Positions 33,294 to 42,686 of a DNA stretch of 64,000 nucleotides are shown in pieces (the first letter of the stretch is position 1; each line of letters opens with the position of its first letter). The notes under the pieces are model-generated. The model was not told the DNA's origin and did no database searches. It was given only the letters and a program-made list of their open reading frames with translations. The DNA is taken from the NCBI GenBank assembly GCA_030390025.1, contig CM059431.1, positions 99,264,001-99,328,000 on the forward strand, in the 5' to 3' direction. The position numbers were made by a program, and so were the translations under genes. This DNA is from Squalus acanthias (taxonomy: Eukaryota).

Positions 33294-34980
33294 TGTAAGG
33301 GTTTTGACACGCCTGAGGCTCTGTGCGTAGCCTGGGTGCTAGTGCGAGGTTAGGCCTTGTTGCCTGTTCTGGTCTCCAGCCAGCCTGATAGCACTAGACA
33401 CCTGTGAGTGGTTCGACCCACTCGCCCTTACGGTTCTGACACTGGACTTAGATGCGAGAGCAATAATGCAGAGAAAACTCAGGTAGACCCGGTTGAATAG
33501 TGCGAAATGGAAAATCTTTATTGCATATTATTCAAGATTACGAAATACATGTCATAAGCACAGATTAATGACAGTACAATCTTACACGCAGTTATGTAAC
33601 TAATTTTAGGGAAACGAGGAGCGCACGACACATCGAAAAAGGGGGCACACATTACAATTATCCTTAAAACTTAAACCCTCCCCTATCAATACCTGACCTA
33701 AACTAGATTTGTAGGATCGAGACTCATGCTCACCACTCGTGATAACTCGGAGAATTCCGAAAACTCTGCTCGGATGTTTTTACCGCAGCACCTGACCACC
33801 CACGTGTTGATCAGGGGTCTCTGTACCCCACTTGTTTACTCGTTTCTGCTCCGGCTAGCAGGCTGGATCGTCTGCTGTCATGAAGATCTGTGTTGTCCTC
33901 GGAGTTCCGACACGACTCAAAAAATAGTCTTCCTGTGCCCTCGCCCCGATGCGATAAAACTCGAAGAATGGTCTTCCTGTGCCCTCACGCCAGTTTGTAA
34001 AACTCAAAGAATAGTCTTCCTGGGCAAGGAAAGTGTTTATTCGACCTACAGGCGCGGTCGGGGCTTACTGACCGTGGCGATACGTATGGTCGTCTTCTTC
34101 TCTTCTCTTCTCATCTCATCTCATCTCATCTCGGGCCTTCGGTTCCAACACCGTTTACCGACTTCCCGGGATGGTGTGCCCGTTTCAAGGCTTCACAGCC
34201 CAGTTCCACACAGATCTTCGCGGCAAGCCACGAGGTTGATCCTGGCGGATCAGAAAGTTCAATAGTCTTCCAGCAAGTCGAGCAGCAAGAGACAGGATCC
34301 AAGAGTCAAGAGGCAAGAGACACGAGGCAAGCGGCAAGGAGTCAAGAGACAGATGGACGGTTGTACCTTACAGTTATAGTGCTGCAATTCCTCTTTTCCC
34401 GCCCAATCTTAATGTATTTTCTTTTGTCAGGGTTTTGGCGCTCAAACTTCTTGTATAGGGTGATCTCCGTTTTAATGGGTTTCGGTGATACTTGTAACTG
34501 TCTGAGTACCCGTTAATACTTCTCCCATTGTGTAACCGGTCAGTATTCTCCCTGGAGGGCTTTTGGGGCTTTCAAATGTTTCTGTAACTACCCGCAAACG
34601 GCTCTCTCATCGTAGAGTCGTGGGGATTTTGCATATTAATGTCTTTGGATGGGTTCTTGATCGCTTGGTACAATAGCCCTTATTTGCACCTGGGAGACCG
34701 ATTCCAGTATTTATGTGTAAAATGCAAACCCATTATGTCTTGTGATTTATCTCAAATGTGCTGAGTCTTGTACGATCTCGCACAAATGTTTACTGGAACG
34801 CCATCTTGTCTGCTTATCGAAAAGTCTAGAATGTTCTGCCACGAGGCGTGGCGGCCATTTTACAGGCTGCTTGTGTCCACTTTGGAAACCTGACAGCATT
34901 CTGCTGAAATAAAGCTGTTTGTACGAAACTATGTGTCTCCTCCTTATTTATAAAATCGCGATAATATTGCGAATTCTACA
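33294..34980 (-). repeat. 3' LTR (1687 bp)
   Basis: Minus strand TGTAG...TTACA; preceded by PPT AACAGGAGGGAC (34981-34992). Confidence 0.93.
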
Positions 34981-35429
34981 GTCCCTCCTGTTGATGCGAA
35001 TAACTCCGCTTATCGTATCAAAAATATTGTGGTGAGCAATATTATCTCGATTCTCCACATCTATGAATTCCCATAACTTAAACTATCTAGGGTCTCTGTG
35101 TCGTCCTTATTTCCCAGGAAAAACTACATTCTTATAACACCGTAGGCAGCATTTGCCTTTAACTTACACCACTTGTTTTTCCTTCCAGGTGTAACCAGGC
35201 CGATGCCTCTCGCACCACCTGTATATGCATATTTTTTATTCAAGGAAAAAGAAAACAAAAACAAAACCAAACAATCATATTCAACAACAACACCATCACC
35301 AAAATAATCAAAACCAACTCTTAAACATGTAGAGTTCCAAACGCAATTACAGTTTCTGAGAAAAATCACGATCGATTACAACACTTCCGAGGCGCACGTG
35401 GCAAACGGGAGTGACGCCATTTTGTCTGA

Positions 35430-40995: not shown

Positions 40996-41000
40996 TTTTC

Positions 41001-42686
41001 TGTAAGGGTTTTGACACGCCTGAGGCTCTGTGCGTAGCCTGGGTGCTAGTGCGAGGTTAGGCCTTGTTGCCTGTTCTGGTCTCCAGCCAGCCTGATAGCA
41101 CTAGACACCTGTGAGTGGTTCGACCCACTCGCCCTTACGGTTCTGACACTGGACTTAGATGCGAGAGCAATAATGCAGAGAAAACTCAGGTAGACCCGGT
41201 TGAATAGTGCGAAATGGAAAATCTTTATTGCATATTATTCAAGATTACGAAATAATGTCATAAGCACAGATTAATGACAGTACAATCTTACACGCAGTTA
41301 TGTAACTAATTTTAGGGAAACGAGGAGCGCACGACACATCGAAAAAGGGGGCACACATTACAATTATCCTTAAAACTTAAACCCTCCCCTATCAATACCT
41401 GACCTAAACTAGATTTGTAGGATCGAGACTCATGCTCACCACTCGTGATAACTCGGAGAATTCCAAAAACTCTGCTCGGATGTTTTTACCGCAGCACCTG
41501 ACCACCCACGTGTTGATCAGGGGTCTCTGTACCCCACTTGTTTACTCGTTTCTGCTCCGGCTAGCAGGCTGGACCGTCTGCTGTCATGAAGATCTGTGTT
41601 GTCCTCGGAGTTCCGACACGACTCAAAAAATAGTCTTCCTGTGCCCTCGCCCCGATGCGATAAAACTCGAAGAATGGTCTTCCTGTGCCCTCACGCCAGT
41701 TTGTAAAACTCAAAGAATAGTCTTCCTGGGCAAGGAAAGTATTTATTCGACCTACAGGTGCAGTCGGGGCTTACTGACCGTGGCGATACGTATGGTCGTC
41801 TTCTTCTCTTCTCTTCTCATCTCATCTCATCTCATCTCGGGCCTTCAGTTCCAACACCGTTTACCGACTTCCCGGGATGGTGTGCCCGTTTCAAGGCTTC
41901 ACAGCCCAGTTCCACACAGATCTTCGCGGCAAGCCACGAGGTTGATCCTGGCGGATCAGAAAGTTCAATAGTCTTCTAGCAAGTCGAGCAGCAAGAGTCA
42001 GGATCCAAGAGTCAAGAGGCAAGAGACACGAGGCAAGCGGCAAGGAGTCAAGAGACAGATGGACGGTTGTACCTTACAGTTATAGTGCTGCAATTCCTCT
42101 TTTCCCGCCCAATCTTAATGTATTTTCTTTTGTCAGGGTTTTGGCGCTCAAACTTCTTGTATAGGGTGATCTCCGTTTTAATGGGTTTCGGTGATACTTG
42201 TAACTGTCTGAGTACCCGTTAATACTTCTCCCATTGTGTAACCGGTCAGTATTCTCCCTGGAGGGCTTTTGGGGCTTCCAAATGTTTCTGTAACTACCCG
42301 CAAACGGCTCTCTCATCGTAGAGTCGTGGGGATTTTGCATATTAATGTCTTTGGATGGGTTCTTGATCGCTTGGTACAATAGCCCTTATTTGCACCTGGG
42401 AGACCGATTCCAGTATTTATGTGTAAAATGCAAACCCATTATGTCTTGTGATTTATCTCAAATGTGCTGAGTCTTGTACGATCTCGCACAAATGTTTACT
42501 GGAACGCCATCTTGTCTGCTTATCGAAAAGTCTAGAATGTTCTGCCACGAGGCGTGGCGGCCATTTTACAGGCTGCTTGTGTCCACTTTGGAAACCTGAC
42601 AGCATTCTGCTGAAATAAAGCTGTTTGTACGAAACTATGTGTCTCCTCCTTATTTATAAAATCGCGATAATATTGCGAATTCTACA
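41001..42686 (-). repeat. 5' LTR (1686 bp)
   Basis: About 10 differences from the 3' LTR by eye; CCAAT/GC box at 42105-42113, TATAA at 42080-42084, AATAAA at 41224-41229. Confidence 0.93.

Follow-up and report, generated by a model that had tools for sequence, protein, structure and literature searches.

A stretch of 64,000 nucleotides of Squalus acanthias DNA (GenBank assembly GCA_030390025.1, contig CM059431.1, positions 99,264,001 to 99,328,000 of the forward strand; hereafter the window, with positions counted from its first letter) carries on its minus strand a retroelement of the endogenous retrovirus (ERV) type, with a long terminal repeat (LTR) at either end. Its gag and env genes are nearly intact, pol is absent, and between gag and env lies a real open reading frame (ORF), designated ORFX, which begins with a coiled coil derived from gag. 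All these parts are repeated in public sequence runs of two organisms. We consider it rather probable that the element is a defective copy of a multi-copy, non-autonomous, trans-mobilised LTR retroelement family of elasmobranchs, in which the central segment has been swapped. What a preliminary description of this DNA had observed was confirmed, and its interpretation is partly supported.

The element was delimited by a direct repeat in which positions 33,202–34,984 correspond to 40,909–42,691 with 99.3% identity. The LTRs proper, recognised by the repeat search and by reading their TGTAG...TTACA ends, occupy 42,686..41,001 (5′ LTR, 1,686 bp) and 34,980..33,294 (3′ LTR, 1,687 bp), exactly the ends given in the preliminary description. 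They differ by nine substitutions and one indel and are 99.4% alike. The divergence of 0.53% would mean an age of ~2.7 million years at 1e-9 substitutions per site per year, a rate that is an assumption and not a measurement. We regard the copy as recently inserted. An 18-nt primer binding site (PBS), TGGCGACCGCGGCAGGAC, is found at 40,995..40,978, 5 nt beyond the 5′ LTR; it starts with TGG and is a putative match to tRNA-Arg. No tRNA gene was found within the window. At the other end of the internal region, an 8-nt purine run was read at 34,989..34,982, one base ahead of the 3′ LTR. The nearly identical LTR pair, the PBS and the polypurine tract had all been named in the preliminary description, and all three were recovered here.

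The PBS is also part of gag. The gag ATG (40,996) overlaps it, so that the PBS encodes the first six residues of Gag, and there is no untranslated leader between the two. The PBS-encoded N-terminus MATAAG recurs in the gag relatives P0008, P0017, P0023 and P0089, and P0005 begins with MATTKG; of these relatives, P0005, P0008, P0017 and P0023 belong to other species. Such conservation of a start that the PBS dictates suggests, as far as the letters can tell, that priming still matters in this family. Other searches yielded little: the fold of 41,001..40,850 was no more stable than that of shuffled sequences (z 0.22), Rfam returned nothing above its gathering scores, a bacterial-type promoter scan of the LTR was uninformative for a vertebrate, and a literature search with the PBS string returned only unrelated papers. 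We also observed an antisense ATG ORF of 179 aa on the plus strand of each LTR (33,726–34,265 and 41,432–41,971), which may be due to chance.

The distance from the gag stop to the env start is 1,409 nt, and nothing of pol was found in it. None of the 14 minus-strand ORFs of at least 30 aa matched a protease, reverse transcriptase (RT), RNase H or integrase family of Pfam at E values up to 10. A tblastn search with six RT and integrase proteins from the window gave a best E value of 0.079, on the opposite strand, and neither a D[TS]G[AS] nor a YxDD motif occurs in the three minus frames between gag and env. Degenerate pol in this gap, one of the two findings by which the preliminary description would have been refuted, was rejected on the Pfam, tblastn and motif scans, and the absence of pol claimed in the preliminary description was thus borne out.

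The larger part of the gap is taken up by ORFX (39,189..38,158, minus strand; 343 codons ending with TAG), which directly follows the gag TGA and stays in the gag frame. Not one of 20,000 first-order Markov simulations remained open over this length; 12.4 stops were expected, and the other five frames contain 5–20. The GC content by codon position (0.71/0.49/0.61) follows the same pattern as in gag and env. These sequence properties mark ORFX as a frame that codes now or did so until very recently. The gag stop stands in the context UGA-CUAG, a consensus that favours readthrough in mammalian genes according to a preprint (10.1101/2021.04.18.440353). A hairpin begins 7 nt past the stop, and its stability is modest (z −2.1; 5 of 200 shuffles were as stable). 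ORFX is therefore predicted to be reached by readthrough of the gag stop; the preliminary description had proposed the same, and both the leaky context and the shared frame are present.

With respect to its content, ORFX consists of two unequal parts. Residues 24–87 form a tandemly duplicated coiled-coil segment (38,960..39,106; a 78-nt repeat with 83% self-match), which can be aligned to the last stretch of the gag coiled coil in two gag-like proteins of the whale shark, P0028 and P0025. Against P0028 the Smith-Waterman score was 77, compared with 27.4 ± 4.9 for the null, and none of 2,000 shuffles scored as high; as heptad periodicity is lost on shuffling, this contrast is somewhat too favourable. 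The two coils also share the strings EQAL..EN..RL and LRDI.AA..VA, which argues for their common descent. Compared by hhalign with the element’s own gag family profile, ORFX with this segment reached E 0.26, which is not significant. The other 255 residues make up an acidic, proline-rich tract with a further internal duplication of its own (38,287..38,613; two 141-nt copies, 76% alike, found by self-comparison). ORFX matched no Pfam family, and no homologue was found among proteins of 188–601 aa. An origin of residues 89–343 from the gag linker was rejected, since the alignment with each of ten gag relatives did not exceed shuffled sequences, and the language model offered no neighbour for this part (best score 0.79). 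The “new cargo gene” of the preliminary description must accordingly be divided: the first quarter of ORFX is a duplicated piece of the gag coiled coil, and these searches gave no relative for the remainder.

Gag extends from 40,996 to 39,190 on the minus strand and is interrupted by one frameshift near 40,664–40,677, where tblastn with residues 1–111 and 107–576 of the skate gag relative P0005 switches frame. The first frame (40,598..40,996) contains the N-terminal domain and the start of the coiled coil. The second frame (39,190..40,695) continues with the rest of the coiled coil, followed by a linker, a region resembling capsid and a single CCHC knuckle (a zf-CCHC match), and ends with the TGA at 39,192..39,190, followed by CTAG. 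The gag relatives of 588–628 aa share the PBS-encoded start and the same end point, and an intact Gag would therefore measure ~600 aa. In hhalign, the capsid region was related to a family whose members match Ty3_capsid, PNMA and Retrotrans_gag (probability 98.6, E 7.8e-16). A Ty3-type capsid is common to many retroelements and is unspecific as a marker of lokiretroviruses. Against the PDB, the gag profile matched only nucleocapsid zinc knuckles.

Three gag proteins were found among 8,000 candidates. A search of 1.84 billion representatives with the gag profile gave 83 matches, 24 of them at 1e-10 or better, and names were looked up for 30 of the 83. Among these 30 were proteins of Rhinoraja, Scyliorhinus torazame, Heterodontus francisci and Rhincodon typus, more distant ones of Xenopus tropicalis and X. 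laevis, and two matches confined to the surroundings of the zinc knuckle, one from a plant and one from a foraminifer; there was no teleost. None of the 83 matches is a Gag-Pol fusion, and those longer than 700 aa align only at or beside the zinc-knuckle positions. No relatives were found in viral contigs with the Env and gag profiles or in metagenome contigs with the gag profile.

Env runs from 37,780 to 35,430 on the minus strand and would comprise ~785 aa when intact. It also contains one frameshift, located within 37,520–37,577. Both genes are thus near-intact, as the preliminary description had stated, with a single frame break in each. The first env frame (37,520..37,780), recognised by its matches to P0001, P0004 and P0025, has the start and a signal-like segment, MERILVLLAAIGCG. 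The second (35,430..37,577), delimited from its ORF and the relatives, contains a furin-type RQRR at 36,803, followed by the hydrophobic GVVNDVF..., a post-cleavage part of 453 aa, a membrane anchor at ~35,600–35,510 and a short tail. The post-cleavage part has ten cysteines ahead of the single membrane anchor, which appears as one hydrophobic 19-mer peak near the C-terminus. The sequence of signal peptide, furin-type site, fusion peptide, long ectodomain, anchor and short tail is the order of features in class I fusion proteins. A post-cleavage subunit of this length resembles paramyxovirus F1 and is far longer than the transmembrane subunit of gamma-type retroviruses.

A screen of 6,344 candidates yielded four relatives of Env with E values no higher than 0.001; they belong to Rhinoraja longicauda and Pristiophorus japonicus, share 59–77% identity with Env and carry annotation as loci. 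Neither Env nor these four proteins matched PF00523 at E values up to 1–5, and the Env profile gave only chance ferredoxin matches in the PDB. The language-model neighbours of Env are F-type fusion proteins, among them clusters with PF07253, PF12259 and PF00523 (Gypsy env, Baculo_F and Fusion_gly) and a chordate cluster without a name, which counts 820 members. The first score was 0.93 (200 of 256 features) at a low recognition (1540) that makes this weak evidence. Taken together, the layout and the language-model lead make an F-type Env likely, although unproven. If it is confirmed, the element would be the first of its kind reported from cartilaginous fishes.

That the parts of the element, ORFX included, are not peculiar to this locus follows from public runs, of which 20 of the 22 listed, from eight studies and several organisms, contain part of the stretch. 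Contigs of four runs from two organisms were placed on positions 31,500–44,500 at 90% likeness, and all 30 bins were covered in each of the four runs, those of ORFX included. Single ORFX positions were covered by 16–32 variant contigs in run X3 (organism A) and by 7–12 in run X6 (organism B). With no more than 172 million letters in X6, a sequence has to be highly repeated to be assembled from that run at all. The contigs of X3 fell into wide identity classes, with 9,903 at 99% or more, 20,741 at 95–99% and 36,396 at 90–95%, counted over the whole 13-kb stretch including a long interspersed element (LINE). Over ORFX, the summed contig depth reached ~0.3–0.5 of the gag and env values and exceeded the transposon flank (43,218–44,500) by a factor of more than ten; these sums are not copy numbers. 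None of the runs listed as containing the stretch is given as RNA. Contigs of runs X10 and X11 cover gag, ORFX and env; the two runs were only guessed to be RNA, and we do not take them as evidence of expression.

The sibling copies are less damaged than the one described here: the stop that closes ORFX in this copy is missing from most related contigs, so that the frame could extend to about 38,011, and a length difference at a single place within the env break is seen in about half of the contig depth. The relatives of Gag and Env span skate, catshark, bullhead shark, whale shark and sawshark, that is, five elasmobranch orders. The whale-shark gene models P0025 and P0015 join gag and env pieces, which is compatible with a short distance between gag and env without being proof of it. 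The sawshark model P0003 joins the N-terminal half of Env to a Niban 1-like protein. All three models look like annotation chimeras over copies of this gag-env family.

The preliminary description assigned the element to the lokiretroviruses. As reported by Wang and Han in 2020 (PMC7947760), these viruses were defined by RT phylogeny, their pol has the order PR-RT-tether-RH-IN, and their Env matches PF00523 at 2.2e-7. The element shares with them the order LTR-gag-...-env and an Env with signal peptide, furin-type site, coiled coils and membrane anchor, and some of the lokiretroviruses presented there have an extra coiled-coil (smc-like) gene. It differs in lacking pol, and hence an RT that could be placed in their phylogeny, and in lacking the PF00523 match. 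As there was also no teleost among the named gag matches, membership in the lokiretroviruses is not supported. The remark that cartilaginous fishes were not among the published hosts was correct so far as this text goes: the RT screen given there was negative for all six cartilaginous-fish genomes (Carcharhiniformes 1, Orectolobiformes 3, Rajiformes 1, Chimaeriformes 1). Two of these six, those of Scyliorhinus torazame and Rhincodon typus, contain the gag family described here. Two readings follow: that the family is not lokiretroviral, or that these genomes lack the lokiretroviral partner it would have.

The gag-only elements BHIKHARI (Bik-1 and Bik-2) of zebrafish are non-autonomous endogenous lokiretroviruses with a coiled-coil Gag of 617 aa, according to a preprint (bioRxiv 10.1101/2024.03.25.586437). 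Like the element of S. acanthias, they form a pol-less LTR family with many copies and recent activity, and in their Gag of ~600 aa an N-terminal coiled coil is combined with a capsid domain. In contrast, as described there, they have neither env nor a second ORF, and their Gag ends with a glycine-rich patch instead of a CCHC knuckle. Our gag profile matched no teleost protein among the 30 matches looked up for names.

ERVs in which the centre was exchanged are known from mammals. In PMC10924933, bovine ERVK C and D, MusD/ETn and KoRV/recKoRV are presented as elements that keep the gag and env (or gag and pol) flanks while the centre is swapped. The D-type of bovine ERVK[2-1-LTR], recKoRV and ETn/MusD agree with our element in that the LTRs and cis signals are kept, pol is lost and many copies exist, and in that sequence derived from a retroelement replaces the middle between flanks that include parts of gag and env. 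The differences, judged from the same text, are that gag and env are full-length and nearly intact in S. acanthias whereas only stumps of them persist in the bovine D-type, recKoRV and ETn, and that the middle is filled by a long open frame, which begins with a coiled coil derived from gag and is coupled to gag through a leaky stop.

A further comparison concerns transducing retroviruses, which are replication-defective, express a Gag-X fusion and need a helper virus. In these viruses, too, pol has given way to foreign or rearranged coding sequence, whose product is joined to Gag. Unlike their inserts, ORFX contains no recognisable host gene, and its junction with gag would be made by predicted readthrough and not by an in-frame fusion; moreover, the family described here is endogenous and has a high copy number.

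On the preferred reading of a trans-mobilised, centre-swapped family, RNA of the element, with its LTRs, PBS and purine tract, would be packaged, reverse-transcribed and integrated by the enzymes of a helper that has pol. Template switching between RNAs that were packaged together could have created the middle segment, as in other centre-swapped defective ERVs, and the Gag-ORFX readthrough product might stand in for Gag-Pol in the particles. The combination of retained cis signals and lost enzymes is one mark of a trans-mobilised non-autonomous ERV. With a frameshift in gag and another in env, this particular copy is unable to produce its own proteins.

Several observations weigh against this reading. 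No helper sharing the LTR, PBS or gag appeared in the scans of viral and metagenome contigs; host genomes were not searched. Among the 32 contigs listed, out of about 95,800 pieces, none bridges the gag/ORFX or the ORFX/env junction, and the layout of the sibling copies is consequently inferred from coverage and not seen. The lower depth over ORFX means that many family members may hold something else in the middle. The stop context is the sole basis of the predicted readthrough. This copy also has no target-site duplication that would demonstrate its integration. Finally, LTR identity could be upheld by gene conversion if the copy stands in tandem with another, and because of the tandem arrangement described below the divergence of 0.53% may partly reflect homogenisation.

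The 3′ boundary, where this tandem arrangement became apparent, had been overlooked in the preliminary description. The repeat does not end with the 3′ LTR: it runs 92 nt further (33,293..33,202, minus strand), through a second spacer, a second PBS and the first 23 gag codons, with one mismatch at the very end. This stump ends exactly where a CR1/L2-like LINE ends (32,854..33,201, plus strand, outside the element); the LINE was recognised by its ORF, and the other LINE copies in the window stop matching at 33,195–33,200. This structure explains why there is no target-site duplication: beyond the 3′ LTR lie the second PBS and gag start, and after them the LINE. DNA self-comparison found the remainder of the second unit nowhere in the window, and the flank upstream of the 5′ LTR has neither an env tail nor a purine tract. 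These letters are most simply read as an LTR-internal-LTR-internal arrangement in which the second unit was truncated where the LINE has its 3′ end.

Such an arrangement is the signature of an array, and it raises the question whether the family was multiplied at the DNA level, by tandem arrays with shared LTRs, unequal crossing-over and segmental duplication. No reverse transcription would then be needed and the missing pol would be inconsequential, and the lack of a target-site duplication at this copy agrees with it. We nevertheless regard this as unlikely. Without env or a purine tract upstream of the 5′ LTR, the array has at most two units; the wide identity classes of the contigs in two organisms are those expected of an old dispersed family, whose relatives extend over five elasmobranch orders; and the gag start encoded by the PBS has been conserved. 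The element might also be an autonomous provirus that was rearranged internally, once and only here, with true relatives that all have pol. This would agree with the reduced depth over ORFX and with the lack of a bridging contig among those listed. It is very improbable in view of the variant contigs over ORFX, which are numerous in X3 and still present in the low-coverage X6 of the other organism, and of a frame that has stayed open over 343 codons. A one-off deletion, in particular, is very unlikely, and the preliminary description is supported where it argued against a simple deletion: ORFX is covered in all four runs, with many variants, which speaks against an accident confined to one locus. 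Host domestication of the gag-like and env-like genes, with the LTR frame as a relic, has in its favour that the skate gag relative P0005 is annotated as a gene with isoforms and that the env relatives are annotated as loci. For the copy at hand this is scarcely credible, given frameshifts in both genes, LTRs that are 99.4% alike and a sequence present in many repeats; another copy of the family might have been domesticated.

A bolder interpretation remains close to the preliminary description, which inferred a satellite or a bipartite partner. It supposes that sharks and rays harbour a lineage with structural genes only, encoding Gag, an F-type Env and Gag-ORFX, large and recently active, and packaged by an unrelated or lost helper. 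We find this doubtful, if by no means far-fetched. Defective ERVs that borrow enzymes are known, and they usually lose env and most of their coding capacity. If the lineage exists, it would be a clear case of a vertebrate retroviral satellite that supplies its own coat, with both particle-forming genes and a readthrough extension of Gag. Surveys based on RT, including the one by which lokiretroviruses were defined, would have missed it because it has no RT, and its existence would show that such surveys pass over entire lineages with env.

The rest of the window contains other mobile elements. A Gypsy-like element at 10,770–14,191 (minus strand) has a DUF7041 gag, RT, RNase H and integrase. 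It was considered as a helper and rejected: the two gag genes are not related (best E 1.6), and nowhere else in the window is there DNA similar to the gag-ORFX-env element. An ORF of 557 aa for a Tc5/pogo-type DDE transposase is located at 43,164–44,837 (minus strand), ~480 bp from the 5′ LTR. At 50,043–51,821 (plus strand), an ORF with RT and a weak GIY-YIG match looks Penelope-like. The first 2,000 nucleotides of the window probably form a satellite or G-rich low-complexity block, with a GC content of 65%, a GC skew of 0.79 and all three minus frames open over 365–650 codons.

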